Made by a program: the position numbers and the translations under genes. A stretch of 63,663 bases of DNA, the filler included, from Klebsormidium nitens (taxonomy: Eukaryota; Plantae; Klebsormidiophyceae), in assembly GCA_000708835.1 (NCBI GenBank). It is 7 parts of 7 records of this genome, joined end to end, with 100 filler letters (N's around TTAATTAATTAA, not from the genome) between each part and the next. Parts side by side here need not be neighbours in the genome. Positions count along the whole stretch, not along the records: positions 47,636 to 53,045 come from DF238472.1; 6 more parts are not named here. The stretch is one strand, 5' to 3'. Below, piece by piece: positions 16,189 to 55,575 of this stretch; position 1 is the stretch's first letter, and every line of letters starts with the position of its first letter. The notes beneath the pieces are model-generated. The model ran no database searches. It had not been told where the DNA came from and was given only the letters and a program-made list of their open reading frames with translations.

Positions 16189-17013
16189 TTAAGCCTCTGC
16201 TGCCTTCTTTGCCTCAACCTCCCACGGAGCTCTCTTCATTGCAGCCCTGAGAGCCTTCTTTTTGGCCTCCTTCTCCGCCTCTAGTTGTTTTTCGTATCCC
16301 TCGGCTTCCATGGCTGACATCTCTTCTATGAGGGTTCTGAAAGCTTTGGCCATGTTCCCGTAGTTTTCGGTTGTAATAGTGATGTTCTTGGCGGAGTTCA
16401 ACGTTTCCTTAGGTAGGTTTGAAGGGACACACTGAAGCATAATTTGTGTCCTCCCTCGCCATTGCTTTGCTTCTGGAGCCGCCCATTCCGCTCCTTTGGA
16501 CATGTCCTCGAGATTCCGGCGGAGCTCCTCCAGAACGGAAGGCCAGAGCTCCTCCGACCCCCTTGTCACGTGCATGGACGCATTCACACTTGCAAATATC
16601 TGCGCCAAGAAAGTGGCCACCTGAATGACCCTGTCACCATGACCTTTGAATTGTTCATCTTGCAAGCCTTGCCAAAATGCGGACAGCTCCATTGCGAAGG
16701 CCTTCGGAAACGCGTCTCCATGTTGCTCCCAGCACTTGCGCAGCCTTTCGGCATGGGCCTCCGTTTGAGCATCCCTTTCCAAGTGATTTTCCTCTGTCAC
16801 TAGCAACCTCTGAGGGATCCCCGAGTTTGCTACGTCAATCAACACCCAGGAGGTAACGACAGAAGGTGCTGGCATAAGATCTTCAAACCGTTCCGCTTCC
16901 AGCGCTGACGTTTTTATCAAAGACTCGGGGGGATCTTTCGTGTGCAGGTTGCTGGAGGAAGTATCGTCCGCAGGCGCAGGGGCTGCGGCGCACCGCGAAA
17001 AGAACAGACCCAT
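16189..17013 (-). CDS. MGLxxS family paralog 2, 274 aa, unknown function
   Basis: Intact ORF from ATG 17013 (MGLFFSRC...). It shares the blocks ExHxxRLxxCWxxHGxAFPxAFxxELS, SxHVxxxSxELWxSVL and RAPWE with paralog 3. Confidence 0.8.
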   Translation of the reverse strand: MGLFFSRCAAAPAPADDTSSSNLHTKDPPESLIKTSALEAERFEDLMPAPSVVTSWVLIDVANSGIPQRLLVTEENHLERDAQTEAHAERLRKCWEQHGDAFPKAFAMELSAFWQGLQDEQFKGHGDRVIQVATFLAQIFASVNASMHVTRGSEELWPSVLEELRRNLEDMSKGAEWAAPEAKQWRGRTQIMLQCVPSNLPKETLNSAKNITITTENYGNMAKAFRTLIEEMSAMEAEGYEKQLEAEKEAKKKALRAAMKRAPWEVEAKKAAEA

Positions 17014-18286: not shown

Positions 18287-19153
18287 TCAAGCGAAGTCCT
18301 GAACCACAACGAACGCTTCATTTTCCCAAGGCGCCCGGTTGAGGGAAGCCTTTATGCTCGCAAGTTTTCTTGCTTTGCTCAGTGCCGCAGACATTTTATA
18401 TGCTTCAGACTGCACCTTGTGAAGGTCTACCCACAGCTTATCAAGTTCGTTGTACAGGTCACGTATGTTGTTCGTATCAGCTACCGATTCCGTTGCTAAA
18501 TGTAACCAGCAGTCCGTCTGCAATAGGCTGAGCAGACTCATAATCCTCTCACGCCAAAGGATCGATGCCGCTTCCGCCCACTCCGGACCTTGATCAGACA
18601 TCTGGTCGTGTTTCCGGCGGAACGCCGCCAGGACGGACACCCAAAGCTCCTGCGAGTCCTTTCTGACGTGCACGGAGTCCTCGCTGCTAGCAAAGACGTC
18701 TGCCAAGAAGCTTGACAGCTGACCCAGCTTGTTTATGGGAAAGCAAGGACCTACTTTGCAGTCTTCTTCCTGAAAGCTGGCCACAAGCAGGGACAGCTCC
18801 TCGACAAAAGCCTCAGGAAACGCTTCCCCGTGCTTCTTCCAGCAACTGAGCAACCGAGCTACATGCACCTCAGTTTCAACCTCTATTCTCCCCTTTTCTT
18901 CGTCGTTAGTTTGCCACGTGGAGGGCCAGTCAATAACCTCGCGCAGAACCCACCTGATCACCACCGGAGGAGCCGCGGTCACTTCTTCATCTTTCTCTTC
19001 TTGCCTTGAGGAAAAAGTGCTTCTGCACGACCCCATGCCGCACTCCAGGTCATAAGGAGCGCCTTCGTGCACTTCGTTCTGGGAGATGCCGTCAGCGCAA
19101 TCAGCAGGCTGCCGCGACTGCTGTGGAGCCAACTGAGAGAAAGCGAGGCCCAT
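18287..19153 (-). CDS. MGLxxS family paralog 3, 288 aa, unknown function
   Basis: Intact ORF MGLAFSQL...RAPWENEAF..., colinear with paralog 2. Confidence 0.8.
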   Translation of the reverse strand: MGLAFSQLAPQQSRQPADCADGISQNEVHEGAPYDLECGMGSCRSTFSSRQEEKDEEVTAAPPVVIRWVLREVIDWPSTWQTNDEEKGRIEVETEVHVARLLSCWKKHGEAFPEAFVEELSLLVASFQEEDCKVGPCFPINKLGQLSSFLADVFASSEDSVHVRKDSQELWVSVLAAFRRKHDQMSDQGPEWAEAASILWRERIMSLLSLLQTDCWLHLATESVADTNNIRDLYNELDKLWVDLHKVQSEAYKMSAALSKARKLASIKASLNRAPWENEAFVVVQDFA

Positions 19154-25967: not shown

Positions 25968-28900
25968 TCATGGTGTGGCCGTCTTGACGGCCGTCCCGTT
26001 GGTGCCCGTTCCGTTCCCGCCAGCCGCGGCGGGAGCGGCAGGCCCGGAAGCGGGAGCTTGTGCGGAACTCGCCAGCACGTTTGAGAAAGCCGGGCCGGAA
26101 ACGTTCCGGGGGGGTGCGATCGTCTCGTGCAGCTTGGGAAGGGAGGAGAACACCTGGGGGTTGACGCCGAAGGCTTGGCCCAGGATTCCGCTCGAGATGA
26201 CTGCAAGCGGAACACGAGAAGTTCGCTAGTGGTGGCGGCCCGGTGGCGGAACGGACATCCGTTCGGGCATCAGGGGATGATCGATTGTTGATTCATTCTC
26301 GAAAAATCCGAGCTCGTTCCAGTAGCCGACTTGAACCTCACAGTTTTTCAGTTGCGACTCACCTTCAACGAAGCCCGTTCACCTGACTGCTCATCATCAA
26401 AATCAATCGACCGGGAATTGGCGGTCAAAGTGAATCGCAATGAGCTGACGGTTATAACGAAGCACATATCAGGGACATTGATTCGACTTGGATCCCTTCA
26501 GACGGGGTTGGATACTAAATCTGCTCGCTCATAACTGCAACTTCCGTAGAGCGGTTCAACCTAAGACAGTCCTAGTCTTCACATGTTTCTTCAATGTTTC
26601 CTGCTAATCTGTTGGTTCCACGAGTAGAAAGATAAACCGAGCAGTTCGTAGCTACTGAACACGAGAGTCATATTTATTTCTCACCGTCGAACGACTCCTC
26701 AAGATCAACGGACTGGAGCTCGTCGCTCGTGGACCACACGATGAAGAGGGTGAAGTTGTCCGTGTTACCCGGAGGGTTGCGGATTGTGTGGGAATACCTG
26801 CCCACGAAAACAGAGAAGATTGCTATTTTGAAGGCGACAACGCTGTCGTCGCCTACAGAGATCCCTGACTGGATGAAATATAGCTCGACTTCATGTGTGT
26901 ATCGTGGGAAGTTGCGGGAACGCACGCACGGGAAGTTTTTGCCTTCGGTTTGAGAACACTCAGCCGCTTTTGGGCAAAAGATTCAGCTTCGTAACTCCTG
27001 CTATCTGAACGTTGTTAGATATTTGTGACTTGGAAGCGGTCACCAGTGGATTCAGCAAAAGAGTCAGCGATCGAACCAAGAGTCCTTTACGTGCTCCTGG
27101 AAACGGCTAATGTACGACAAAGCTGTACAATCTGAGCTGCCAAGGCAAAAGTACAATCTCGAAGCAGACAAGGTGACGCGCGCGCGCACCCGGTGGGGAA
27201 GAAGAAGAGGTTGCCTGGTACCGCGTCATAGCTGTACGTGTCAGCCCCGGTGGGTCCCACCGTCTGGATGGTTCCTTTTCCGCCCGTCACTGCAGCCGGA
27301 ACGAAATTCGAGCTTGAAAAAGTTGCTGGGAAAGCCCTGAAATAACAAAATTGTGCTGCCGGCGCCGGAAGTGAAGGCTCTGATCGGACGTACAATAAAG
27401 AAGCCAAGGAAAAGGTGTCAAAAAGGAAACCCAGAAGGATGGCGGTAAGGAAAAGCGTCATTTGCAGCCAGCTTTGTGCCAATTCGGGAAAACAAATGCT
27501 CATCTCCAATCAAGACTCCAATCGCTCTTACGAAGGACTCGAACGACACGTGAACATCAGATCCGACCGAGCAAGTAACATCTGAAACCATCCAAGAGCC
27601 GTCCCTCACCGTATGCGAACTCGTTCACCGTATGCCAGTGCGGTTCACGGACCCCCCCCGGAACCACGAGCAGGCTTCCGGCCGTGATGCCGGCATTTGT
27701 GTTGTGGAGGGTCTGGCTGAAAGCGGTCTGCTGGGCGGTCAAGTTTGCGGCCGTCGCGTTTGCGCGATAGCGCGCCCACTGCAAAGAAACAGGTGTTACG
27801 GCTTTCAGACTTGCTAGAAGGAGATGATTGAGCAATTTTGGATGGAGACCTGTTCTCATGGCTGGTGGTGTTGATGACGTCTCCCAACGCCAAACACTGC
27901 GCGCCTTGTTTTAGCAAGAAAGGGCTTTGTGGCTACTGTTTGCTCGAGAGTGCCGCAAACCCGGACGTATACATGGTAGACCGCCCTCAAGGGCGGTGGG
28001 GGCTTGCCTATTATGTGCCGCAGACGGCAGGAAATTATAAAGTGGAGTCGCGAGGAAAGTTCAAGGCGTCCAAGTATCTTTGAAGGACTCAACGGGGTCC
28101 AGATTTTCAAGGGATTTGTTGGATCCGAGCAGATTTTATTCAGGGTGTTTGAACCCAGAATTCCGTACAAACCCATGCGGTGCGTACTTCAAGTCGCTGC
28201 GCAGTGCATACCAGGTTACCAAGCTCTCGTCCTCCCGGGCACTTTGACGCATCTTTAACAGACTTTGGGTGCAATACTGAGGGAGTCGATCGCAGTTAAG
28301 GGTCTTTTGAATTTTAATTTGTGCACTCAATGACCGGCTTACGTCGTAGTGTCAGGCGCTTGGCAGAGGTACCAACTTATACGTGGCAGCTTCGCACAAG
28401 TTCGTGGTATTCGAAATCTTACCACGTGGCAGTTTTGCATGAACCGTGTTTGGAGAAATCGAGGGTGAACGTTACTTCGTTACGGTATTTTCCGTCGGCA
28501 CACTCGCGCTCGCGTTCGATGCGTATAGGTAGCAATAAATCACGAAGGCGCGCGGCACAGTCTGTCCTTGGCCCCCGCCCAGGTGTGGATCTTTAGGGGA
28601 ATTTTGCGTACGTTTTCGTATCGAAGCAGGGCCAAACGAGAAACTCGCCAGTCTCATACTTGTTATCTTCCGCAGAGCGGCGTCGTACAGCGTCGCCCGA
28701 AGAGCGGTTCCGTGAAAGCAATGGTTTTCATATTACTAAAAGTAATAGGCAAGCCAATATACGCCCTGTTCGGCTCCTATTGAACACCCTCGAATCGCAC
28801 ATGCGTTGCAGACCAACAAAAAATTTCATCGAACCGTTCAACACCACGGCGAGCTTGCAACAGCGGATGCTGCGAGGATTTGTGTTTGACTCCGATGGAC

Positions 28901-31282
28901 GTATGAGAGTCGAGAACATTCAAGGCCTTGGGAATCAAACTTGCCTGGATGACTCCCCCGGGATACGTGAAGTTTTGGGAGCCCTTGAGATTGTAGAAGT
29001 AGTTGCTCGCGTTGAGGTTGTCGGAGCTGACGATTGGGCCGTCCAGCGGGGATCCGATCTTGTTAGATCCGGCAGGTCCGGGCACCAGAGCCTGCCGGAA
29101 ACGGAACCGGAGCGGAAACACTGTTTGAGTTGAGTCGGCAGCTTCTCCGCACGAACTACTTATCAGCAATGAAGGGCTGAGGAATCTGTTCATCTGCGAA
29201 TTCTACCGTCTCGGGGTTGCTTCTTATTAAGTTTGACGTGGGCGGACAGTCTTTCATCAAAAGCAGAAGCTGCGTCCTTTGCGAACATAGGATCTTACCT
29301 TTGAACCGACGGCATAAGCGGGGAACTGAGCAAAGGTGGCGCTTTGGCCGCCTAAGATTTGGGCGGTGACTGATGGGTCTGACACTGCGAAGTTGACACC
29401 AAGCGAGCAGTTAGCGTTCACTCGGAGGTGCGAAGAAAGTTTATCGAGAAATCGAGGGCTGTCTGCTGGCGCATTCAATTGAAGAACGCAAATTTTCTTC
29501 CGTACAACGCTTTCAGGCACCTTGGGCAATCTTCGGTCATCCAATTTCCCCTTAGCGTCCAAACGTCGCACGGTGTGAGGCAATACCGCTGAAACTCTGT
29601 CCATGTGGGGACTTGCGGAGAATACCAAATTTGACTGCTTCAATTTGTCAACACGAGCCGCTCACAAAGTGGAATCGATTCATTCTAGCAGTGTCGACAA
29701 AGCGCGAAAGTTCGCCTCTGAAAAGGTTCTAGCGTCTTCTGAAATCAGGAGCTGATGGGTTGAAAGGGTCTGAAACTCTTCAGTTGTAGTTGAAATACTT
29801 ACAAAGCAACAGGTCGTCGAGCTGCAGGGTCTGAATCTGATCGACGGTGCTGAACGCGTTGAGGATGGTCAGGTTAGTCGAACCCGAGTTCCTGCAGGCG
29901 AAGAACCCAAAACATCAGATCGCACCTCGTCTCCTCTTTTGGTGCAGACCTCTATTATATCTGCTTTATTGCAAGAAGGTGCACATCCTCGAACTCATCC
30001 GTTGTCTCAAGGTTCAACAAGCCAAGATGGATACCTGGCCATATGTTACCTGCTATCCAGCTGACGGGCGAATTGAAGCACAATCCAGCTGCGGTGTTGC
30101 ATGTGAGCCTGGTTTCGTAACCAACCGGATTGGGTAACAAATGTGGGGAAGTGAACTGCACTCACGCGATGTAGTGGTTGTTCCCTTGGGGAAAGAAGAA
30201 GATCTGTCCCTGCTGGACCGCAAACTCCGCGGCGGGAAGAGTGCCCGGGCCAAAAGCCCCGACCTGCGAAAATTACCTTCGTCAAGTATTAGTGACGTGT
30301 CGGGTCCCTCGGAAGCTCAACTTCAGCCTGAGCATTGCTAAGTAGCAAAGTACAGCTGTACTTGCATAAGTCAAAATCGTGCCCCATGGAGTCGACTCGG
30401 TTCGACCACCCCAAAAAACCTTCTTTCCGAAAATTCAAGGAAAGCTCAAGATAGGACACGGAAAAAGGCTTGGCCCGAGCAGCTTCACACCAGATGTCTT
30501 TTCGTCTCTGCACCTTTAAGTCACGCTCAAGCAACGTGTCGCACGTTCCGGTCACCTGAGCCGTTCCGCTGAGGACGTAACCCAGTTCCGCGGTGTTGAA
30601 GTGCCAGTGTGGCTGGCGTAGGCCGCCGGGGGCGATCGTCAGAAGCGCCAGGGAGATGCCGCCCCAGGGCGCGGTTCGCATGTGGATCGAGTCGCCAAAC
30701 GCTTGCTGGAATCCGTCCAGGTAAGCGGAACCGTTCGAGCGGAAGCGGGCCCAGCGGAAGACGCCGAGGCCTGTACGTCAGATGATCCAGGGAAGGCACG
30801 GGTATGCAGAGCACATTGTTATTGTGTCCAGATGCGGGGCTCTAAATTCTCTGCTTTGATTGCCTCAATGTTGGAAGGCATTCGCACGGGAGAGGGTCAG
30901 AAGAAGCACTGCACTGCAGTTCTCATCTCTAGCTAGCTGAAAGAATCTGTTTTGAAATTTCTGCTAGGTCACTCTGGTTTAGTAAGACCCAGCCAGGACA
31001 ATCTTGGTTTACCACCCGAATGGTAGGACCCGGAGTGTCCTTGAACGATCCAGCTGCAAAAAGTTAGACTCAAAGAACCATGCGCAGCAACGTTGAGATA
31101 ATACGAGGAGCCTGGATGCGGGTCTCACCTGGGAAATTGTCACCCTTAGCGATAGGCGTGTTTGCCAGATCGATGAAGAACTGGTACTTGGGATCAATGC
31201 CAGGCGCGAGAGTGACTTGGGAGGAGACGACAGCCAAGGCACCCACAAGCAGTACGACGAGGAAAGCCGGGTGGAGAGCCAT
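25968..31282 (-). CDS. Secreted bicupin, oxalate decarboxylase (OxdC) family, about 10 exons
   Basis: Signal peptide MALHPAFLVVLLVGALAVVSS. Cupin 1: IAPGGLRQPHWHFNTAELGYVLSG (~30560-30640) and GQIFFFPQGNNHYI. Cupin 2: VVPGGVREPHWHTVNEFAY (~27610-27670), GNLFFFPTG and HTIRNP. C-terminus LGQAFGVNPQVFSSLPK followed by an Ala/Pro/Gly tail. Confidence 0.85.
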
Positions 31283-41523: not shown

Positions 41524-41635
41524 AACGCTTCCCAGGTAAAGGGGGTTGATGAGGTTGTTGTGAAGTTGAGGAGGAGGAGCTTTATGTGAAGCTTAAGTTG
41601 GGTGTAGCGCTAAGAGAGGCGTTACCGCAAAGGAG

Positions 41636-43110
41636 ATGGCAGGAATTGACAAGATTGTCATCCCGCAACTTGGAGGTGAGAATTGGTCGGTATGGAGGGC
41701 CAAGTTCCGAGCCCTTCTTGAGTACAAAGGGTTGTATATTGCTATTGAGCAACCGGAGTCGGTGGAAGGAAGAAAAGCATTGGGGCAAGCAAAGGCTTTG
41801 ATGATCCTCCACACTCAAGATGCCGATGTAAAGTTGTTCATTGGGAAGTCCGCGGCTGCCAAAGCTTGGAAGAAGCTTGAGGAGAACTTTGAGAAGACAA
41901 GCAACGCGAGGGTTGTCCAACTTAGGAAGAAGTTGACAAGCTTGACGTTGACCCGAGAGAAGAGCATTGCGGAGTACGTGGGAGAGTTCCGCGAGATTAA
42001 GGTGGATTTGGAGACAGCGAGCCAAACCGTTTCCGAGGTAGAGTTGGCAATCCATGCCTTGATTGGTTTGCCAAAGGAGTATCCAACTCTTGTTGAGGTC
42101 CTAGAGTTGAGTGAGGAGGAGTTGACGTTGGACTCAATTTAGCCTAAGCTCATGCAGAAGAAGCAAAAGTTGAAGTTGGAAGAGGAGCTCGGAGCTCCGG
42201 AGGAGAAGGAGGAGGAGAGTATGGGGAAGGCGTTTGTTGCCAACCGGGAACGGTATGAGACCGTTAACAAGGGGTCAAATGAGCGGGGTGATTTTACCGG
42301 AGGGGTGAGGCGTGAAGGTGGTCCCGACGCGAGGACGTGCTATGCTTGCGGAGAGAAGGGCCACGTCCGGGCCCATTGCCGGAAGCGGAACGCGAAGTGC
42401 TTCAATTGTGGGGAGAGGGGCCACATAAGCTCGGTGTGCAGGAAGCCCTGGGGTGGTGCAAAGAGCGGCGGTGAGGACCGCCCGGACGGGAAGGAGTTTG
42501 CCGGTGTGGCGTTTACAACGTGGCGCAAAGAGGCGCGGGTGCCGGCGAATGTGTAGCTTGTTGACTCGGGAAGCACTCAACACATTACGCCGGATAAGAG
42601 GCACTTTGCAAGCTACGAGCGGCTTGCGCGTGCGGAGAAGATTGAGGGGTTTGGAGGAGAAGCCTTGACGGCGGTGAGGATTGGGAAAGTGGTCTTGGAG
42701 TGTGAGACGCCAAACGGAGCGGGCAAGGTGACCTTGAACGAGGTTTGGCACGTTCTGGGAGCGGGAGCAAACTTGTCGCAATGCGGCGAGCAACGGACGC
42801 GGGCGCAAGGATCTCCTTTGAAAGGGGGATTGCCCAATTTGAGATTGGAGGTGTGGTGAGCATGGAGGCGGTGCAACGCGGCGGATTGTCGGAGATTGCA
42901 ACGGTTAAGAAGGCGAGAGCGTTCTTGGCGGTCAAGGGGCCGGTCAAGACGGAGCGTCGGTTCAGGAAGGTGGCAGCATTGAATGGGTGTCGTTTACCTG
43001 ATAACGCACGCGCGTTTCCGAATCCGTCGGACAGGCGCCGCGTGGTCTTCAATTGCGGCAGTATCTGTAAAAGTGGCAAGATGTCACACGTTGACGGGGT
43101 GTCGTAGCCC
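41636..43110 (+). pseudogene. gag-pol: Copia gag (two CCHC knuckles) and aspartic protease
   Basis: GENWSVWRAKF...AWKKLEENF, CYACGEKGHVRAHC, CFNCGERGHISSVC, then V*LVDSGSTQHIT. In-frame TAG stops occur at 42140-42142 and 42554-42556. Confidence 0.9.
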
Positions 43111-44195
43111 GAAAAAGAGCGCACGTGGTCCTTAACCCGCCGGGAATGGAAGGTGTGGCAGTGACTTTGCAACCTACCGGGCACTACTCTTGTACCCGAA
43201 GCTTACGGGTTGGGCGTGGCTGGTGGTTACGTACTCTCTCAGTCTGCATACAGTTATATAGAGTTAGAGACTTGTCTCCATTTTTTAAAATCGAATCTCT
43301 AAGTATACCCCCGGGGCCCTTGTAGGTGACCGTGACAACCAATGTCTTGGAGATTAGATCGAGTCAAGCGGGCTAACTTCTATATGGCCCTTCCCCCCGC
43401 CAGGGATAGGTACCCCCGTTTGGCAGGGCCAATGGACTCACTGTGCCTTCCGAAGCGGTGCAGTTGGGGTCCTATGATCGGTGCCAAGAAACTCGCCTCA
43501 CGCTAGTGTTGGACCCAAATGTCGAGGCCACGCTTTCGGAACAGGATCCTAGATGTATATTTGGAATTTGAGGAGGCCCATCGTCTTAGCAGTGGACCAG
43601 AGGGTGTATTTTCGATATTATATGTTTTCTGCGGATGGCTCGTTTTGCCGCAAAGGTCGCCGTCCAAAATCGAATCATTTTGAATCATCCCAAACCAAAA
43701 ACCGGTCAACGCCGCCTCGAAGGCCGCCTCTTTTCCAGCGCGTCCCAAGCTACCTTGGCATTCTTAGCTGCTGAGATTGCCCCTAGGGGCTGTTGTGCCT
43801 AATGTGCGAGCCTATTAGAGCCTTTGCTTTGCGAGCCTATTAGAGCCTTTGCTTTCTCGATCGTCCTCGCATTACCGGCCGGGTCCGTAATCGCTTTCCA
43901 CAACATTTTGTGTGTCAACAAAGAGTTGCATCCTTTGTGACCACTACAAAATTGTCAACATCCAAAGGCTCTATAAAGACTTTGAATCCCTCTTCCATCT
44001 TTATCGCTAGCCAAACAACGGTTTTTGGGTTGGGCATTCCTCTGTACCGAAAGGCTTTGTAGGTATTTCTGGTGGCGTCACGAGATCGAGTGCTAGTCTA
44101 CTCCTTTAGCCCGACCGAATACCTATCGCCTTTTTAAGTCGAGCAAAGCTGCCAAAAATGGATAACTAATACAAGTCAATGGTTGGTCATGCGTC

Positions 44196-44685
44196 TGTTA
44201 GAAATCGGTGATCGTGGTCAGCCGAAGTACTATGTAATTAGGCTCTTGCCCGAGGTAGAGTTAAAGTAGTGAGCGCCGGCGTTCGTGTACGGCGGTTGGA
44301 CGGTTGAATCGTAGGCGGTTTGGAGGTTAGGCGCTTGAGAGCAGCCGTCAGTGTGAGCCTTAAATAAGAATATCAAAGGCTAAGATTCAGTGTGATTGTG
44401 AGCTGGGCTAGTGAGCCTAGTAGTGTGTTACTTAGGCTAGTGAGGCTACCAAGCCGAGTGGAACGGGAAAGACCCGTGAGACAATAGTGGAGAAAAACAC
44501 TATTGTGATACATCATTCTTGAGAAGTCTGTGGAGAGATGGAAGCCGCTTGTGAGGCGCTTCGTGTGTTATTCTAAGGATGCATGGTTGCCATAAATGAG
44601 TGACGAGCATGGGGACGAGCAACACGATTAGACCCGATGACGAGTCAGCAACTACACTACGAGTCCCTTACCATGAGTTTCAACA
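44196..44685 (+). mobile_element. Solo LTR, family B
   Basis: TGTTAGAA...TTTCAACA termini. The flanks GCGTC / GTGTT fit a TSD with two C>T changes. Confidence 0.85.
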
Positions 44686-45182
44686 GTGTTTGTAGCTAGG
44701 TCTACTTTAGCCTTGATTAAGTCCAATTCTACCCCTATCTGGGTCAATCCAAACATCAGCGACCAAGCTCCTCAAGAGCAACCTAATCCAGCATATGGTC
44801 GCATTTTGAGTGTCAAAAGACTTATCGACGGCTCATTTTGTGCCAGCATATCTGTGCGCGCCGATAAGGCGTCATGTCGCTTGACTACAATCCATTAATT
44901 TGAGACTTTTCGACTCGACGATTACACACATTCTTGGGCGTACCGTTGCTAGTTGTTACGCAATATGGCGTTACATTAGCACAAACACTACATTGAAAAC
45001 GATTTGCATTGATCAATGAATCCACCGGGAATATGTCGACGATACGTAGCTTTTTCTTGTAGTGTGACACGAGACTCCGTTACATTAGTGCGTTTTGCAC
45101 CAAAAAGGAACTTTGTAGACTCAATAGACATGAAAGAATTTGAACGCCATTTTGCGATTCTTTCTGCAAGTGGTGCTCTCTC

Positions 45183-47426
45183 TTGGCCCTTGCAACTGAG
45201 CTTCTTGCTACGTCCTCATGCAAGAAGCCGAAAGTGGGGCACATGCGGGTATTTGAGGCCCGGCGTTTCCGCACATGCCAAAGCAACCGGAGACGGAAGT
45301 TAAATTCGCTCAGCAATCGAAGAGTATCCCTTGAGACATTCCCAAACTCCAAAGCGTACTGTGTGCTCCGGAAGAGAGTTGGCAAGCTCATCATCCGCCG
45401 AAACGTCATTTTTGACGAGGGAGCGAGCGAAGAAGGGGTTGTCAAGCTTAGCTCCGAACTGTAAAAGGATTCGCCCATGGCGGAGGAAGATGGCGCACGA
45501 GATCCGGTGGTGGTCAAAAAGGGGCCCCTATTGGGACTCTTGGGAGCGAGTTAGCACGGCAAATCCAGGACCGGCTAATTTGGGGAGGTTTAAGATCTTG
45601 AGCGCCAAGCGGAGGCAAACCGGAAGAGATGGAGGTGGACCAAGAAATTCAACCACCGACTACCAAATGTACCTCTCCCGCGCTCGGCGGGCAGCAGGGT
45701 ATTGCGCCAACTTGGAGGCGGACGTGAAAGCGGAGGAGCAACCAACGCGACGAAGGAGCATCCAAAACCGCAAGGTATTAGGAAGCCTTGGGGGTAGAAA
45801 AGAGTGACCTTCGGCGGATGGTCCATAAACGAGAAGATGGTTTCCGTATTGGGGAACAAGATTCGGAGATTGTCGAAAAACCGGAATTGGGAGAAGCGCG
45901 CTCCATGAACTGACTATACAACGGTTGAGAAACGGAGTTGATTGACGGCCACATTGTTGAGTTAGGCTCGATAGATTTGAGCCGTAGGATCGTGGATTGT
46001 GTCGGGTAATATTGACCGTCGGATTGCGATTTGTGTCGTTTTATATCGACCGTAAAATTAGAGAATTGGTTGAGTATCGACCGTCGGATTGCGTTTATCT
46101 CGGATGGTGGATCGTTAGATGTGAGTCGAATCGAGTAGTGTAATACCCCGACCACTAGAAGTTTGGTACTACCGACCACTTGTAGCATAGTGCCCCGATC
46201 ACAAGTCCAAGCGGACTATAGGCCATATTGTGAGTGATAGAGTAACCGGTTGATGGAAAGGAGTCCATATAGTTGAACCGACTAATGGGTGGTGGAAGTA
46301 GACCCGACCTAGGCTAGAGTACATCTAGCTACGGGATTGGAGCTACTTCGGACTCATGTCCGTGATGATATTCATTCTAAGAGATGCTTGAGGGAAAAAA
46401 GGCGCTTCTTTGTGAAGGCGCTTATGTGTAAGGGTGGTTAGACCCTAGCTTGTGACAAGCATGAGTGAATGATTTTAACAAGAAGATCAAGCGGGGCGCT
46501 CACATGATTGTGGAATTATGGTTGGTGCCAAAGGGCTATTTGCGGAAGCAAAGGATTGACTTCGAGGAGGTCTACACTCTCGTGAGCAAGTACACAACGT
46601 TGCGTGCGATGGTGGCAATGGTCGCGCAATACGACTTATAGCTGCATTATTGGATGGCAAGACGGCGTTCCTTGACGGGGAGCTGAGGAGGAAATCTACA
46701 TGCAACAGTCGCAGGGGTACGAGTAAGGGGCCCGAGATGGTCTGCCGCCTCAAGCGCACCTTGTACGGGTTGCGCAAGGCGAAGCGGAAGGCGAAGCGGA
46801 AGCGGTGGCACATGTGCCGGAAGGTTTTGTGGCGTCCATGGCGGACGCAACGCTCTTCACGAAGATTATAGCTGAGGAGCGGGTCTATCTCGTGGTACGA
46901 GTGGACGACAATCCTCGTGGCAGCCCGGGGAGCGGAGTGCATTGCAAAGGTAAAGACGCACTTGGCGCAGAAGTTTGACGTGCGCGATTTTGGGGCGGCG
47001 ACGTACGTCGTCAGAATGGAGCTGACACGCAGTAAAGAGGCGCGCACCTTTTCAATGACGCAAAAGAAGCTAAGGGGGAGCTCGCCAGACGTTACCGAAC
47101 ATGCGAACGTGCGGGCGTGGAGTTCCTCTCGGGACGCGCGATTGATTCACGGGGGAGCCTCGTCAAAAAGCGATTGCCATACATCGAGTGTGTGGGAAGC
47201 CTGCTGAACCTAAGTGTGTGCACAAGGTACGACATCACACGAGTAGTGGGCGCGCTTGCGCACTATATGGCAAGGCCAACAAAGCGCACTGGCGGGCCGC
47301 GCTTTGAGTGCTGCGCTACGTGGCAGAGTGACCTAGTGGGGGAAGCAATGAGCAGTCGTCGATTACTATGACCAGATTACGCGGGTAGCATGGACACAAG
47401 GTGGTCCACAACAGGGTATGTCTTTC
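45183..47426 (+). pseudogene. pol: Copia pol remnants: integrase C-terminus, reverse transcriptase and start of RNase H
   Basis: KPKVGHMRVF...KAYCV...RRNVIFDE; LVPKGYLRKQRIDFEEVY; KTAFLDGEL; VRVDD; YIECVGSLLNLSVCTRYDI; DYAGSMDTRWSTTGYVFLL. There are many frameshifts. Confidence 0.85.
45871..46480 (+). mobile_element. LTR, family D (related to C at its 3' end), inserted in the RT region
   Basis: TGTCG...TTTTAACA termini. The 3' part (TTGTGAAGGCGCTT...AGGGTGGTT...AAGCAT...GATTTTAACA) parallels LTR-C. No TSD is seen. Confidence 0.7.
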
Positions 47427-47635: not shown

Positions 47636-47971
47636 GGCTTCTTCTGCCCTCCAACGTGCTGCGTCGTTCCGATTCCGTTGTCTGGCAGCTTCTTCTGCTC
47701 TCCAACGGGCGGCATCGTTCCGATTCCGTTGCCTGGCGGCTTCTTCTGCCCTCCTACGATTGGCCTCGTTCCTTTCCCGTTGCCTGGCGGCCTCTTCTGC
47801 CCTCCTACGATTGGCCTCGTTCCTTTGCCGTTGCCTGGCGGCTTCTTCTGCCCTCCTGCGATTAGCCTCGTTCCTTTCCCGTTGCCTGGCAGCTTCACTT
47901 GCCCTAAATTCATCATTGAGCTCTGCCAGCCTGCGTCTTTCCTCGGCCTCCTTTTGAGCCTTTCTAGCCAT
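47636..47971 (-). CDS. E/R/A-rich 17-aa tandem repeat protein (charged single alpha-helix-like); 3' end in gap
   Basis: A 51-nt unit is repeated at least 5 times, encoding EAARQR(E/Q/N)RN(E/D)A(N/A)R(R/W)RAE. Confidence 0.7.
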
Positions 47972-47994
47972 GTAACGTCTTTCTTCGACAGGAT

Positions 47995-48423
47995 CTACAA
48001 AATAATAATACTCGTTATCTTGGTTTCATTATGCAAACATACCTCAATCCTCCAATACCGTCTGGTTTCTAGCCATCTTCGGAGATCTCTTTCGATCTGG
48101 GCCATGACCTCGTCAAGTGTTGGTTTGTCATGAGATGTCCAGTCCTTATTTGGCCACTGCTTCTGACAACTCCAAACTCGCGGTCGCGGAAAACGATTCC
48201 ACGGCTTAGTCCACGGCGTAATGTGTGAAGTAGGGACTACTGGATTCTCTATTGACCACTGTTCTGCACTAGCATGACCGTCAGAAACATAGGCTCTAAA
48301 GAAGACGCAGACACGCAGAGGCAATTGTGTGTCCCGTACTATCTGCGTCGTGCTCCATTGAAGGAACCTTCGTACTTTTGGGAGAAATGCCAAGATTTCG
48401 TCTTTTCTTTTCTTGACCTCCAT
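47995..48423 (-). CDS. Hypothetical protein, 142 aa, Trp-rich ORFan
   Basis: ATG-initiated intact ORF packed between the AAA gene and the repeat gene on the same strand. Confidence 0.6.
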   Translation of the reverse strand: MEVKKRKDEILAFLPKVRRFLQWSTTQIVRDTQLPLRVCVFFRAYVSDGHASAEQWSIENPVVPTSHITPWTKPWNRFPRPRVWSCQKQWPNKDWTSHDKPTLDEVMAQIERDLRRWLETRRYWRIEVCLHNETKITSIIIL

Positions 48424-48509
48424 TGAATAGCGTAATCTTACGTGAGATCTTATTCCTGGATCTGCATGAATGCCCAGAGGCCTCTGGACGGCATCCGGTT
48501 GTACGCAAC

Positions 48510-49690
48510 TCAGTCCAGCTCCTTGTTCGGAAAGGATCCAAAGTCAGCGTTCCACTTCTCGAGAGCGTTCAGGCTCTCTCTCTTGACGCTGGGTTTGATG
48601 ACATCCTTTGCCTTTTCGAAGTGTTCGAACTTGACCGGTTTTATTCTCTCTACCGGGACATCGAGGATCCCTGCCCCGAGGGCACGGAGCGGCATCATCG
48701 CTGCTTCTTTGCACAGTGAATTCAGATCGGACGCGGAGTAGCATTTCGTGAGGGCGGCGATGCCGTGCACTTGATTGACACTCAGCTCGTTCGGTAGTTT
48801 ACGTGATCTAGGATTCGGAATGTTTGGCTGCAGATGCTTCTCCAGTAACTTCTGTCTGGTCGTGAGATCTGGTAAGCCGACGTAGATCCTCTTCTCGAAC
48901 CGTCGCACAGCTGCGTCGTCCAGCTCCTGCGGCAGGTTCGTAGCCGCTATGACGGTGACCCTGTCGCTCTTGTCGGTCGCCACCCCGTCGAATTGGACGA
49001 AGAACTCGGTCTTCAGCTTGCGGGTATACTCCTGGTCGTTCTCGCACCTCTTCGTGAGGATGCTGTCTATCTCGTCTATGAATATGAGAGAAGGTTGTTT
49101 CTTCCGAGCCACCGTAAACAGAGCTCGAAGGAGATTCTCCGCATCGCCTACCCGGGAGGACGCGAACGAGGTCGCACTTATGGAGAAGAAGGTCGCCTTG
49201 ACTTCGTTCGCGACGGCGCGTGCGATGTACGTCTTTCCGTTGCCAGGGGGACCGAACAGGAGCAGACCCCTCGGGGGAGTCCTGAGCCCGGTGTAGATGT
49301 CGCTCCGAACGGATGGCAGTATGACCATCTCGGTGAGAGCGATCTTGACTTGCTTCATACCTCCGATATCCTTGAACGTGGTATCATCTCTCGCTTGCAT
49401 GATCTCTCCTGTGATCTGCTCTTCGAAGCGTACGAGGTTGCCCTTGGGAGTCGGATCGGATCGTCTCAATATCTTCTTCAGATATGCCTTCCACCTCTTC
49501 ATATCTTCGACCTTCGAGTGCACTTGACTCATCTGAATTGCTGTCAATGCAGAGGCGTGCAACAATCCTTCGTCTACGAGAGTCGATACGTGTTCGTAGT
49601 ATGTTTGCGCCGTGGCTTCATCGCCTCTCCGATCGTGACCTATGCCTTTATTATAGAGGTACTCTGCCGCTTCGTACAGTTTGTACAATC
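48510..49690 (-). CDS. Spastin-like MIT + AAA ATPase, intronless; 5' end in gap
   Basis: An MIT-like region (AEYLYNKGIGHDRRGDEATAQTYYEH), Walker A TGLRTPPRGLLLFGPPGNGKT, Walker B IFIDEIDS, KLKTEFFVQFDG, AATNLPQELDDAAVRRFEKRIYV and the C-terminus IKPSV...LEKWNADFGS. Confidence 0.9.
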
Positions 49691-50344
49691 NNNNNNNNNN
49701 NNNNNNNNNNNNNNNNNNNNNNNNNNNNNNNNNNNNNNNNNNNNNNNNNNNNNNNNNNNNNNNNNNNNNNNNNNNNNNNNNNNNNNNNNNNNNNNNNNNN
49801 NNNNNNNNNNNNNNNNNNNNNNNNNNNNNNNNNNNNNNNNNNNNNNNNNNNNNNNNNNNNNNNNNNNNNNNNNNNNNNNNNNNNNNNNNNNNNNNNNNNN
49901 NNNNNNNNNNNNNNNNNNNNNNNNNNNNNNNNNNNNNNNNNNNNNNNNNNNNNNNNNNNNNNNNNNNNNNNNNNNNNNNNNNNNNNNNNNNNNNNNNNNN
50001 NNNNNNNNNNNNNNNNNNNNNNNNNNNNNNNNNNNNNNNNNNNNNNNNNNNNNNNNNNNNNNNNNNNNNNNNNNNNNNNNNNNNNNNNNNNNNNNNNNNN
50101 NNNNNNNNNNNNNNNNNNNNNNNNNNNNNNNNNNNNNNNNNNNNNNNNNNNNNNNNNNNNNNNNNNNNNNNNNNNNNNNNNNNNNNNNNNNNNNNNNNNN
50201 NNNNNNNNNNNNNNNNNNNNNNNNNNNNNNNNNNNNNNNNNNNNNNNNNNNNNNNNNNNNNNNNNNNNNNNNNNNNNNNNNNNNNNTAGGGCCTGGACAT
50301 CCTTTAGACTCCGCAAGCCAAAAAATCAGAGCTTAAATTACACC

Positions 50345-51607
50345 ATGTCTCTTCGAGAATGGAGAGATTCTGCGCTCATGACGGCACCGAGATTCCAAAG
50401 CGATGACGGCTGGTATCCCATACTCGATACCAGCCCCATCAATCGTTCGAGGAATCCCAGACTCGCCGATGCATCTGACAGATGGATGAAGCAAAAACAA
50501 TTCTTGGAGACAGAGTACTCCGACGATCTAGAGTCGTTCAAGCGGAACGTGAGAGGCCTTTCGCCGGACGAGAGACTACGCCTGAGGCGAACGCTGAGGG
50601 CTCACGACAGAACGTGCCAAAAAGATTTCGGAAGGGTGAGTCGTTACTATCCCCCTCTCTTATCCCTGAGCGCCCGTGACAGGAGTGCCTTGATCAAGGA
50701 TCTCGCGAGCGATCGGCCACGTCATCGCTTCGATAGAGCACATTGCGGAGATCATTCGCCGTGGGCAGGCACCGGCTACAAAGTCAGAGGGAATCCGGGG
50801 CAGGAAATTCCGGCCAAGCACGACGAAAGATCGGTGAACATGCTCATGCCGCAGGAACCGAGGGAGCAGATGGAGTGGTTGACGAGAAGGAATGCGAAAA
50901 ATTTCGCTTGTAAGCGGCTGTACGGCGATGGTCGCGTGTACGACAGAGGGGATAAGAGAAAAGTTCCAGACAAGAAGGAGCATCTGCAGCGAGATTGGGG
51001 TGACGACGAATTCTACGTAGAATCATGCTTGTTGCGAGATGACCAAAAGAGCCGAACGGTCAGGACGGCTCAACTCCGGGACAACATGTTGCACGGCGTA
51101 GATCCAGCGAGGCAACAACAGCTCAGAGATTTACGAAATGTTGCATCGAGGTTGACTGGAGTCAGACGGGAAAGGAGGGGGAAAGCAGTCCTCGATCCAC
51201 GTTATGTCGACACCTTCAGACGGGAGGCAGAACGAAAATATCTGCAAAAGTTGATGTGGCGACTTGCAAAAGTGCCAGTAGGCGATGTGCCCGCATACCG
51301 TCGATTAGAGAACAGGGATTACCAAGACTTAAAGCCGTTGCAAGAGCACGGCTTCCGACTCGAAGAGTATAAATTCATGCATGATAGGGGGGGTAATCAC
51401 AAAGATTACTTTAGAGGTCCGAGTCCACCCACATCGCAGAGCGGAGGCTCTTCGCGAACCAGCTCTGGCTCGACGGTGACGACTAAATCGAGCTCATCAT
51501 CTTCGAAAGCATCGACGAGTTCGACAACTGGACCTAGAAGCAGGCATGCAGCGTGGATAGGACCATTGTTCGAAGCACATTGTGGCGGCGAAACGATACT
51601 GTTTTAA
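50345..51607 (+). CDS. Hypothetical protein, 420 aa, Arg/Asp-rich with a Ser/Thr tail; ORFan
   Basis: A long uninterrupted ATG-initiated ORF diverging from the AAA gene. No motif was recognised. Confidence 0.7.
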   Translation: MSLREWRDSALMTAPRFQSDDGWYPILDTSPINRSRNPRLADASDRWMKQKQFLETEYSDDLESFKRNVRGLSPDERLRLRRTLRAHDRTCQKDFGRVSRYYPPLLSLSARDRSALIKDLASDRPRHRFDRAHCGDHSPWAGTGYKVRGNPGQEIPAKHDERSVNMLMPQEPREQMEWLTRRNAKNFACKRLYGDGRVYDRGDKRKVPDKKEHLQRDWGDDEFYVESCLLRDDQKSRTVRTAQLRDNMLHGVDPARQQQLRDLRNVASRLTGVRRERRGKAVLDPRYVDTFRREAERKYLQKLMWRLAKVPVGDVPAYRRLENRDYQDLKPLQEHGFRLEEYKFMHDRGGNHKDYFRGPSPPTSQSGGSSRTSSGSTVTTKSSSSSSKASTSSTTGPRSRHAAWIGPLFEAHCGGETILF

Positions 51608-51687
51608 AGGGAAGCCTCCTCCAGATTATCTACACACAAACATTCAGCCTAGTGTGATTATGGATCTCAGAATAGTCCGTATATTTA

Positions 51688-51714
51688 CAGTCTGTCCAGA
51701 GTAAAATGGCACAC
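51688..51714 (+). mobile_element. Left end (TIR) of the IS630/Tc1 element
   Basis: TA-CAGTCTGTCCAGAGTAAAATGGCACAC lies 30 bp before the transposase ATG and recurs at 52860. Confidence 0.75.
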
Positions 51715-51744
51715 CTATTTTTATCCGGAGTATACTAGGACGAG

Positions 51745-52662
51745 ATGACCTACGTTCTTAGTATCCGACAAGCTGTCCTCCGCCTACTCTCGTCCACGGG
51801 CATGAGCATGAGACGAGTGGCTTCTGCATTTGGGATCGGTGCAAGCACAGTGAGCCGTTGGGCGAGGTGTGGCATCGCCATCAAGAAGAGGACTTACTCT
51901 ACCAAGATCAGCTCGGACATAGTTAAGACTATCAAAAGCATCCTCATGCACGACCCATGTTTGGGATTGCGATGCCTGTGTTCGAGGATCTTTGGTGCGT
52001 TCGGAGTTCGCATCTCCAAGTCGTTGGCAGTCACTGCTATCAAGAAAGCAGGATATACGCGCAAGAAGGCACGATTGCAATTCGTACCTAAAAGTCAAGA
52101 GGTCCTGACATCCTTGCGAAGCGAATTCACCACGAAAGCAAAGTCGTACGCCAATAGACATATCGTCTTCGTGGATGAATCCGGATTCTCTGTCCGGAAT
52201 GCATCCCCCATGTTTGGTTATGCACCCAAGGGAATACCACTCCGTGTCTCCTCCAGTCCTCCAAGTGGAAAATCCGTAACACTCGTCGCTGCAATCTCGA
52301 ACTCCGAGTATCGAGCTTGCATGACACAGACGGGGCCGATGAACTCACAGAATTTTGCAACATTTCTATCGACCGCAGGGATTCCTACCGGGAGTGTCAT
52401 CGCCATGGACAATGCTGCGATCCATAGGACTAAGCAAGTGCGTGATGCAATCGCAAAACTGGGCTGCGAAGCCCTCTTCATCCCTCCATATTCACCAGAT
52501 TTCAATGCGATCGAGAACATCTTCGGCATCATGAAGGTCGGAACGTGGAAGAATCGTGCATCGATGACAGAGAGAAGCGTCCGGACTGCGTTCCTCGATC
52601 TGGATATCGATGTGTTGCAGAGAACCAGCCAGCGCTGCTTGAGAACTTTCTGGAGATTCTAA
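51745..52662 (+). CDS. IS630/Tc1-mariner DD34E transposase, intact, 305 aa
   Basis: An N-terminal HTH (MSMRRVASAFGIGASTVSRW), GYTRKK, VFVDESGF, IAMDNAAIH and PPYSPDFNAIE, with 34 residues between the second D and the E. Confidence 0.95.
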   Translation: MTYVLSIRQAVLRLLSSTGMSMRRVASAFGIGASTVSRWARCGIAIKKRTYSTKISSDIVKTIKSILMHDPCLGLRCLCSRIFGAFGVRISKSLAVTAIKKAGYTRKKARLQFVPKSQEVLTSLRSEFTTKAKSYANRHIVFVDESGFSVRNASPMFGYAPKGIPLRVSSSPPSGKSVTLVAAISNSEYRACMTQTGPMNSQNFATFLSTAGIPTGSVIAMDNAAIHRTKQVRDAIAKLGCEALFIPPYSPDFNAIENIFGIMKVGTWKNRASMTERSVRTAFLDLDIDVLQRTSQRCLRTFWRF

Positions 52663-52859
52663 CTCGAGAGAATGTATCCATCATCGGACGCTGGCATCCG
52701 AGAATCCAGCTCCAGAGGTTTCTAGATCGCCACGTGGTGACCACAGACGTCCGAACTCCGAGAGCTTCAAGCTTCGGATCGCCACATTGCAAAGTCAGGC
52801 GTCCGAAACGACTTCAGCCCGAAAGTTTCTTCGCTTCGGACGACCTCTCTCTGAGTATA

Positions 52860-52886
52860 CAGTCTGTTCAGAGTAAAATGGCACAC
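52860..52886 (+). mobile_element. Second copy of the same TIR in direct orientation
   Basis: TA-CAGTCTGTTCAGAGTAAAATGGCACAC, 1 mismatch to 51688-51714. Confidence 0.8.
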
Positions 52887-53145
52887 TCGCCATAGTACTC
52901 AGCCGTATCTCGGGTTCTCACCGAGGTGCCTAGATGAACTCGTTTCTAAGCACATGCTATGTTTTATCACCTCGAACTAAGGTCCTAGAGGCAGAGTCCT
53001 TACGCGCATCGACCTCGGGAACCGGATTATTCGACGGTTCTCCTTNNNNNNNNNNNNNNNNNNNNNNNNNNNNNNNNNNNNNNNNNNNNTTAATTAATTA
53101 ANNNNNNNNNNNNNNNNNNNNNNNNNNNNNNNNNNNNNNNNNNNN

Positions 53146-55030
53146 CATATTCCACAACGTTCTTATATAAGTGCCTGGCTTGAATCTTGTCCCGACCGGA
53201 TTTCTTCTTGAGTTCCGCGGTATTAAATTTGTCGTCGGTACCGGGTTCAGTCATACACCATAGCCTTTTCCCCTTGCCCTTTGCAACCTCAGAATTAGCG
53301 GCACTGCTACTCTTCTTGCTACCGATGAAAATGCTGACATCTGGTTGGTAATAATAATCGCCCAGGCAGGCATCATATAACTTGTCCATAATACCTTTTC
53401 CGTTGCCTCCTTTTCCGACCCAGAAATGGATGATCTCCTCGGTCTTAGACCCGTGGAGGATATAAGCACCAAATTGCATCATATATTTGACCATTTCGTC
53501 TGTTTGGTAGATGCTCTTGTTCAAATCTTCAAGGATCGTGCGCATTTGGGGGTCAGATTCGGGAGTGTACTTATAACCAGTGCTGAAGGTTAAGAAGTCG
53601 TTAGGTCTGCCAGCCCTGAATTCCATGGCGTCAAGATCGTAAACCCCGTTCTCAAACCCAAGAAGATGCGGGAACTCGTCCAGTTTGTTCGTGAATTGCT
53701 TGTCGGACATATAGAAGATGTCCGCACACTCCTTCATGATTGCACTCTTGAACGTGTTATTTTTAAGTCGGCGTCCAGTTTTCTTGAACACCGAGCTGCT
53801 GTCGTCCTTGTCATCATCATCATCTGACTCCTCCACGTCAGCCTGTGCCTTCTTGCTGCACTCCTTGGACATCGTAATGTACGCTTTGTACACGTCCGTA
53901 CTGAGTTTGTTGCGGAGGTCAACACCACCGACGCACTCTTCCCAACGATGCCCGCCGAACTTGTACCATGTAGTGTTGTTTTTCTGGTCTTTGGTACTAA
54001 CATAGTCAAACTTGTACATGGAGTACACAACCTGCGCAACGTCATAATGGCTGCCAGATAGTGACGTCATCAGAGCGGTTTGTAGGCTGGTCTCGTTGTA
54101 CTTCTTGTACGCGTCAGGACTGTCCAACTTAGCCCAATAGTGCAGACTGCGGATGGTGTTGTTCGGTTTGAAGTCGTACCACAACTTTTCACATTCGCCA
54201 GACTTGTACTTCGATGAGAGTTGGCTGAATGTATCCCAGACTGGCAACAAACTTTCGTCGATGCTGTGCAGGCTTGAACCGAGTGCAATCCAGTCAGAGC
54301 GGTTGTCCGCACGTGAGGGAGAAAGCATAGCCACAAGCTGTTGTACCTCGCCAAGAAGTACTATGTTACACTTGGGCTTGGTTTCACAAACAACCTTGAC
54401 TTCAGCCTTGGCACTTACACGCGCGGCATATTCGGCAACCTCCGCCTTTTTCTCCTCGAGTACAGGCAGGGTAAGCGAAGAATACTTGTTTTGAATCGAA
54501 AGGCGGTCAGTCAGATCAGATAGTTCATCTTCACAGTCTTCTCTTTCGCCGTCCTCACCCCACAACTTGTACGAGCAAGTGTACGCAGGACCTGTACCAT
54601 CTTTAGTGCTACCGTACAGAAGCAGTGGGTTCTTGTCGATAACCGCTTCGTCGTACATACTCTCGAAACTGTTGCGAAACGTGACGTCAGCAAAAATTTC
54701 GGCGATCGTGCCTGATTCCAACAGGTTGGTACGGATGATCTTCTGGACAGTTGGACACGTGACCAGATCGGGGAAGTGCAGGTGAAAACCGTCTTTATAC
54801 GGGTGACTCTTGTCCTTCCTCGGGGCAGGCTTCTCGAGCACGAAACACTCCAGGGCTTCCTCGTCAAATTTGACGTAATTAGAGGCTTCCTTGGTGACGG
54901 CGTCATACAATGCCTTGATGTGGTCGGCAGTGTAAATACGAGTAGCCGAGTCCTGCTTAAGATCGAAATCAATGAATATGGGGGACTGCTCCAAGTGCTT
55001 TTCAATTAACGACCACGAAGTCGTAATGGA
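53146..55030 (-). CDS. NCLDV-type D5-like primase-helicase (AEP + PriCT-2 + D5_N + SF3 helicase); 5' end truncated, 3' end in gap
   Basis: LIEKHLEQSPIFIDFD, KDGFHLHFP, LLYGSTK, RADNRSDWIALG...WDTFS...SLHYWAK, LLGFENGVYDL, HFWVGKGGNGKG and CMTEP. No introns over ~1.9 kb. Confidence 0.92.
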
Positions 55031-55225
55031 GTTGTAAGTTTTACAAGATTTGACTTCATCCTCATTCTCCTCACTTCATCCTGGCCCTGGGTGAATTCAC
55101 CCAAACTCATGATGAAAACTCTCATTTTCCTCATCTGTTTCATCATTCCGCTCATTCTCTGAGACTACGATGAGGGTTCGAATGAAGAGTCCCTTCATCC
55201 TCAACCTCATCCTCATCTTCATCCT

Positions 55226-55575
55226 CATCCTCATCCGCCGGGGGCCTTTACCCCCGCCTTCATGTTCCTCCTCCGCCTCATTCTGCTCACCGAGGAGAAT
55301 GAGGATGAGGATGCCAGGTGCGTATGAAAAACGTATGCATTCATGCTTCACACTCATCCTCATCCGCCGGGGGTCTCTACCCCCGTCTTCATCTTCCTCC
55401 TCCGCCTCATTCCGCTCACCGAGGAGAATGAGGATGAGGATGCCAGGTGCGTATGAAGAACGTATGCATTCATGCTTCACACTTATGCCCGGCGGCCGGG
55501 GGCCTCTCCCCCCGCCTTCATCTTCCTCATCCGCCTCATCCCGCTCATCGAGGAGAATGATAATGAGGATGAGAG
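55226..55575. repeat. 129-bp minisatellite (~2.7 copies) with internal inverted repeats
   Basis: Units start at 55226, 55355 and 55484. Each has CCTCATT...AATGAGG and GGATGAGGATG...CATCCTCATCC stems. Confidence 0.85.

Follow-up and report, generated by a model that had tools for sequence, protein, structure and literature searches.

The window, by which we mean the whole 63,663-nucleotide stretch of Klebsormidium nitens DNA analysed here, consists of pieces joined by six 100-base spacers, and the gene of interest (P0001) sits on the 5410-base piece at 47636-53045. The spacer bounding this piece at 53046..53145, one of the six, reads 44 N + TTAATTAATTAA + 44 N and acts as a six-frame stop. P0001 is a compact MIT + AAA spastin-like open reading frame on the minus strand (48510..49688; 392 open codons and a stop) whose 5' end enters a gap of 596 N at 49691..50286 that covers the gene start. 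The initial annotation called the gene intronless, which holds across the visible 392 codons but goes no further, because the start of P0001 is hidden in the gap. Manual reading of the loose ends of related copies from runs X1 and X5 extends the frame by ten codons with neither a stop nor a Met, and since this extension has a pyrimidine-rich tract ending in AG four codons ahead of the visible frame, the sequence leaves room for a short 5' intron that P0001 may also hold. The top homologue, GAQ93431.1 (P0002) of K. nitens, is the same gene, letter for letter apart from differences in the model, which begins at Met53 and drops residues 297-340 (44 residues) as an in-frame intron. We rejected this intron, as it would delete an AAA lid helix seen in full-length relatives; because the excised residues include the AAA lid match of P0001 (residues 309-336), the annotated intron most likely reflects an artefact of the gene model.

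Beyond the gap, on the same scaffold and pointing away from the AAA gene, lies an orphan ORF of about 420 amino acids with a Ser-rich tail (50348..51607, plus strand), for which no homologue was found, including among proteins of 230-734 aa. The scaffold also carries an intronless IS630/Tc1-type transposase (51745..52662, plus strand). The two Atlas clusters nearest to it are 100% viral, with Nucleocytoviricota as the most frequent group, a likeness that we treat as a pointer to viral context and as a lead only. A 29-base direct repeat (51686-51714 and 52858-52886), which starts TA-CAG, has one mismatch and would be expected 0 times by chance, brackets the transposase; no terminal inverted repeat was found in 50287-53045, and the direct repeat may represent either a left end in tandem or an atypical boundary of the element. 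Downstream of P0001, an ORF with 51-bp repeats (47636..48025, minus strand) may belong to a duplicated unit, since similar text follows the paralogue P0007, a likeness judged by eye and unscored by tblastn. Coding-like tandem repeats are present at 47636-47896 (51 bases, 5.1 copies) and at 55213-55571 (129 bases, 2.8 copies), and one contig from a soil metagenome (X5) spans both the ORF with the 51-base repeats and the 3' end of the AAA gene, arranged in the same order. Other parts of the window hold a degraded copia-like retroelement (41597-47370, plus strand) with gag-like ORFs, a Pol_BBD match at 42557-42856 and RT-like fragments; two similar single-exon ORFs of 274 and 288 aa on the minus strand (16189-17013 and 18287-19153), which look like tandem paralogues and match no Pfam family confidently; and exon-like stretches with cupin-type HWH motifs (27560-30780, minus strand), presumably resembling an oxalate decarboxylase-like gene.

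The protein begins with a predicted MIT-type three-helix domain (residues 1-75; 49464..49688, minus strand; helices 2-20, 24-46 and 50-75, block pLDDT 84-93), followed by a linker of about 17 residues with net charge 0 (49413..49463, minus strand) and by an AAA domain in which Walker A, Walker B, the sensor Asn and the RR motif are all present. Walker A reads GPPGNGKT (146-153; 49230..49253, minus strand), Walker B is an intact IFIDE (202-206; 49071..49085, minus strand), and the arginine pair R262-R263 (48900..48905, minus strand), aligned to the spastin RR motif, presumably provides the arginine fingers. An AlphaFold2 model (17-row alignment, mean pLDDT 84) likewise shows three helices at the N-terminus, joined by a short linker modelled with low confidence to an AAA domain resembling that of spastin. 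Pfam MIT gave no match in P0001, and a fold search with a single-sequence model of the MIT region (pLDDT 62) returned generic three-helix matches only. A profile of the family's first 80 residues, run against 306 N-terminal regions rich in plant spastins, found 17 at E<1e-3 and reached cellular spastin MIT domains with E down to 7e-10 (best E 0.07 in a reversed control), the Chara and K. nitens spastins being among its top three matches.

The best solved-structure sequence matches of P0001 are spastin AAA domains (E 3e-80), and its best fold matches, with identities among those listed of 44-47% for spastin and 38-44% for FIGL1, stand above katanin (35-36%) and Vps4 (32-36%), the last being set apart by identity only, in that our trees hold no verified Vps4 sequence. 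An Atlas search with the relative P0003 returned general AAA/Vps4/katanin clusters at 0.97-0.98 and was not discriminating. The MIT + AAA layout proposed in the initial annotation is thus borne out by the three-helix prediction and by the spastin matches of both domains, and so is derivation from a spastin, by the closest AAA matches together with the tree position described below. GPPGNGKT is present as described there, but it is no marker of the spastin type, as many unrelated viral AAA loci carry it. Judged by its sequence, P0001 belongs by ancestry to the spastin subfamily, the general domain roles of which are outlined in the part of PMC6279391 available.

Two features absent from the initial annotation, a deleted linker and an altered pore loop 2, are stronger signals than the Arg in pore loop 1 on which it had focused. 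From the N-terminus to Walker A, six family members have 145-151 residues, and the median from the MIT start to Walker A is 212 residues in 26 cellular spastins, so that the family linker is about 60 residues shorter. The basic linker, or microtubule-binding domain (MTBD), ahead of the AAA domain is missing in P0001 (about 17 residues with net charge 0, against about 90 residues with net +9 in the host spastin). According to the available part of PMC2064084, human spastin without linker 270-328 shows neither microtubule binding nor severing.

Pore loop 1 of P0001 reads FASSRVGDA (175-183; 49140..49166, minus strand), so that ASSRVGDA stands at residues 176-183 as first noted, against FASSLVG in the family and LTSK(W/Y/F)VG in cellular proteins. 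The motif F-A-S-S-L-V-G is found in the K. nitens paralogue P0007 (95% identical), in P0003 (69%) and in P0004 and P0006 (63%); P0008 (46% identical) has A-S-L-V-G, and T-K-F-V-G is kept in P0010 (45%). Lys or Arg followed by Trp, Tyr or Phe occupies this site in 257 of 259 cellular relatives, these being the non-family proteins that score at least 230 bits out of 331 proteins. The initial annotation was therefore right that the aromatic residue is replaced, but the Lys is replaced as well and the family residue is Leu (S-L-V-G) rather than Arg. The G-D-A tail that it had also listed is not odd, given that the 259 cellular relatives include E-A 71 times, D-G 12, D-S 8 and D-A 4. The Arg codon (CGG, 49152-49154) is carried by contigs of run X1 (depth 21.5) and by one contig of X6, while contigs of run X3 and another contig of X6 have a Leu codon at the site; run X8 yielded nothing there. 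Because separate contigs carry each, both alleles are real; they occur in two studies, of which X1 and X3 may represent the source sample. We rejected sequencing error at this codon, since contigs of X1 and X6 carry the Arg, nor is the pore change common in plants. On this sequence evidence the Arg is a genuine allele at the level of the copy and not a trait of the family, whose motif is S-L-V-G; the change from Leu to Arg in P0001 is a later allele.

The pore loop 2 region, KRCENDQEYTRK (213-224; 49017..49052, minus strand), departs from cellular spastins at two positions, with Tyr or His at 221 in place of a small residue and Lys at 224 in place of Arg. At 221, Ala, Ser or Gly is found in 254 of 258 cellular relatives and His or Tyr in all five core members; at 224, Arg is found in 253 of the 258 and Lys in 5/5 core members. 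P0001 itself reads Y-T-R-K, so the small residue and S-R-R of severing spastins are not kept. By offset from the Walker B glutamate, residue 221 corresponds to human A457, and by offset from a structure alignment residue 224 corresponds to Drosophila R601. In the portion of PMC2064084 available, A457E abolishes tubulin-tail binding by human spastin, and any one of Y415A, A457E or removal of linker 270-328 is enough to eliminate tail binding or severing, the pore mutants retaining some ATPase activity; Drosophila R601 is described as part of the tail-binding loop in the available part of 10.1101/2024.10.17.618886. Among further AAA proteins of meiotic-clade type, P0126, P0139, P0138 and P0165 also do without the aromatic residue in the pore (S-K-N-R-G, S-K-S-M-G, S-K-N-F-G), the last of these proteins, at 373 aa, being compact as well.

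Relatives of P0001 are whole ORFs of 380-390 aa on environmental contigs of 2.9-56 kb, and several copies of the shortened spastin are present in K. nitens DNA, one of which, P0007, is modelled without the normal C-terminus. A search for a separate host spastin recovered a conventional one from the same species, P0011 (GAQ86208.1; 501 aa, SKWVGEGE, on a 115-kb contig), which is 51% identical to P0001 over the AAA domain. Our trees, quick searches without bootstraps that omit P0002 and P0122 and carry partly guessed group labels, place the family as one long-stemmed clade beside green-plant spastins. The core members group together with support of 100 on a long stem, and P0008 and P0010 join them with support of 74, 90 and 96 across three trees. 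The last value comes from the MIT + AAA tree with pore columns excluded, in which the six members tested are one clade (SH-aLRT 96); in the MIT + AAA tree the family lies inside an SH-aLRT 95 group with green-plant spastins and two other rows. The family was never sister to P0011 in free trees, and an AU test did not reject a grouping of the core family with P0011 (p 0.075). Among the differences listed between X1 and the P0001 ORF, synonymous changes account for 12 of 16 codons, where 23% would be expected (p 2e-5), and one X6 contig differs from P0001 in nine codons, seven of them synonymously. The fixed pore letters, the kept catalytic motifs and this synonymous bias suggest a protein under selection and not a ruin.

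Set beside known AAA systems, the family is closest to spastin (human SPG4, Drosophila 6P07/3B9P and GAQ86208.1), with which it shares MIT plus a single meiotic-clade AAA domain with a C-terminal helix, GPPGNGKT, and 44-51% identity to P0001 over the AAA domain. It differs in the linker/MTBD (about 60 residues shorter), in pore loop 1 (S-L/R versus K-W/Y), in H/Y221 and K224 of pore loop 2, in its one long exon and in its several copies. The compact layout of MIT, short linker and AAA is that of Vps4 and archaeal CdvC, and the CdvC profile aligns with residues 6-383 of P0001 (200 bits, cut-off 650), but Vps4 is only 32-36% identical among the matches listed, and P0001, like the host spastin, matches Vps4_C at positions 27-61 only and does not cover the full Vps4_C/beta-domain region. 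Vps4 keeps the aromatic pore residue. Its dependence on pore loop 1 is treated in the available part of PMC2064084. FIGNL1 (38-44% identity for the FIGL1/FIGNL1 rows listed) is, in the part of PMC7617353 available, a relative of spastin that has turned to a client other than tubulin, namely the N-terminus of RAD51; it keeps K-W and has a long N-terminal region, whereas the shortened spastin family has an MIT-type domain. Cdc48 D1 shows that a ring can work after losing the aromatic residue of its pore (PMC5511170, in part), but Cdc48/p97 belongs to another clade and has tandem AAA domains, so that the likeness is by analogy only. Giant-virus AAA ATPases of the FtsH/CDC48-like kind are likewise virus-encoded AAA folds, but with 12-32% identity in the BFVD rows; the Clandestinovirus protein A0A8F8KRE4, labelled 'spastin' in UniProt, is only 18% identical to P0001, and 80 IMG/VR AAA loci score at most 109 bits against P0001, nearly all with an aromatic pore residue.

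The initial annotation described the gene as virus-borne. Viral carriage of the family is, we believe, probable, and capture of the shortened spastin from a green-plant-type host by a giant virus that left it in the Klebsormidium genome is likely, with the one long exon visible in P0001, the whole-ORF relatives on environmental contigs and the transposase lead favouring such an origin. The claim cannot draw on the D5/C962R-type primase-helicase (AEP + PriCT-2 + D5_N; 53147..55075, minus strand), which is cut by the spacer inside its helicase domain; because it lies on the next piece, across the 100-base spacer, it is no proof of a viral neighbourhood and was rejected as proof of linkage to P0001. 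A scan with the primase found no close viral relative, the best matches among the viral loci compared being 29-33% identical, and no viral hallmark gene is found on the 5410-base piece itself. IMG/VR scans with P0001, P0003, P0008, P0010, the family alignment and two degenerate patterns recovered no family member; two of these scans, covering 26/64 and 38/64 parts, returned only FtsH/CDC48-like matches at 31-44% identity, and the longer degenerate pattern does match the window. JGI metagenomes and GTDB gave at most four unrelated bacterial proteins and no family member, so that none of the relatives was observed next to a viral hallmark gene. Among BFVD structures there was no close viral match (best rows 12-32% identity). 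Giant-virus inserts have been described in K. nitens (PMC5294986, PMC12344493 and 10.1101/2025.04.15.648976, in the parts available), and CHG methylation is described as a silencing mark in this species in the available part of PMC12344493. In run X7, which has an excess of C>T/G>A, the sites listed at 47827-47918 were converted at 8/8 CHH, 1/5 CG and 1/6 CHG, a weak CG/CHG-methylation pattern that lies downstream of P0001 and not within the gene. This copy is probably silenced.

How such a protein would work can be outlined as follows. After capture of a green-plant-type spastin by a giant virus, of which P0001 would be a leftover in the Klebsormidium genome, pulling on tubulin tails would be unlikely without the linker, the Lys and aromatic residue of pore loop 1 and a pore-2 Arg. 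We consider it very probable that the family does not sever microtubules, so that the loss of severing suggested by the initial annotation is likely with the linker and the Lys/aromatic pair gone and pore loop 2 altered. The MIT domain, on a Vps4-like short tether, would dock on ESCRT-III: the human spastin MIT binds IST1, CHMP1B and CHMP3 (available part of PMC9477494), and binding of the family's MIT domain to IST1/CHMP1-type tails seems to us somewhat favoured. A ring with a weaker, less basic grip would then pull a non-tubulin client. With the linker lost, both pore grips replaced and the ATPase motifs and MIT-type domain kept, the whole reading of ESCRT-III docking and a non-tubulin client is tentative, and equally tentative is the proposal, by analogy with Cdc48 D1, that an active ring could remodel ESCRT-III or a viral membrane protein in virion membrane formation.

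We give first place, as a plausible reading short of a probable one, to an ESCRT-III-docked motor retargeted to a new client, although S-L may simply grip nothing, since Vps4 and FIGNL1 also use the K-W pair (PMC2064084 and PMC7617353, each in part). Next comes a viral decoy or dominant negative, the latter already raised in the initial annotation, which would occupy ESCRT-III tails or join host spastin rings and block severing with no client of its own. By analogy, the family resembles the inactive pore mutants in the available text of PMC2064084, having kept the MIT domain and 51% AAA identity to the host spastin and lost the linker and the K-aromatic grip, but a decoy seems unlikely to us: its pore is not degenerate and has fixed new letters (F-A-S-S-L-V-G, E-H/Y-x-x-K) across members only 63-71% identical. 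As these letters are fixed and the catalytic motifs are kept, selection for a client fits better than a pure decoy. A complex prediction of the family AAA domain with the host spastin AAA domain scored 0.25 against a mark of 0.34, which speaks neither for nor against mixed rings.

Less likely again is that the family arose as cellular retrogenes in algae like Klebsormidium, or travelled as the cargo of some mobile element other than a virus, and took on a new role in the cell, in which case the environmental relatives would be algal DNA. The only named members do come from K. nitens, the AU test leaves a grouping with the host spastin at p 0.075, no match appeared in the viral collections scanned and the D5 neighbour is separated by a spacer; but free trees never put the family beside P0011, and the orphan ORF, the viral-like transposase, the extra copies and the methylation hint look like foreign DNA. 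We regard as improbable an enzyme that still severs microtubules or binds tubulin with an altered tail preference. In its favour, spastin is the closest sequence and fold match and P0010 keeps K-F-V-G and E-H-E-A-S-R-K despite its short linker; against it, the core family lacks, in combination, the linker, both the Lys and the aromatic residue of pore loop 1, and the second pore-2 Arg, and in human spastin removing either the aromatic residue or the linker is by itself enough to stop severing (PMC2064084, in part). Most improbable of all is a decaying relic whose pore changed by neutral drift in a dead copy: the restriction of the Arg allele to some copies and the P0007 model without a normal C-terminus suit it, but it explains the Leu-to-Arg change only, S-L-V-G being common to five proteins on other contigs, and the frame is intact with mostly synonymous changes.

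Virus-encoded actin, myosin, kinesin, dynamin and SNAREs are known. It is conceivable, though we hold this less firmly than retargeting itself, that giant viruses of green algae carry a so far undescribed spastin lineage converted stepwise, by loss of the linker with K-F kept (P0010) and then by S-L (P0008 and the core), from a severase into an ESCRT-III-docked motor for a new client, which would make it the first virus-encoded member of the spastin/katanin/Vps4 clade. A literature search with thin coverage of subscription papers found no virus-encoded spastin reported, and the word 'spastin' is absent from the main text of PMC11915834, PMC10583209, PMC12768974 and PMC8383183. Should the family be viral, it would tie ESCRT-III or the control of microtubules to the giant viruses of streptophyte algae, and if the stepwise viral reading is true, nature has run an experiment in retargeting a pore loop. 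Irrespective of where it came from, the family is a naturally occurring spastin whose conserved pore has no aromatic residue and which lacks the linker that binds microtubules, and it allows a direct test of how the aromatic pore residue and the linker each bear on the choice of client in the spastin enzyme clade.
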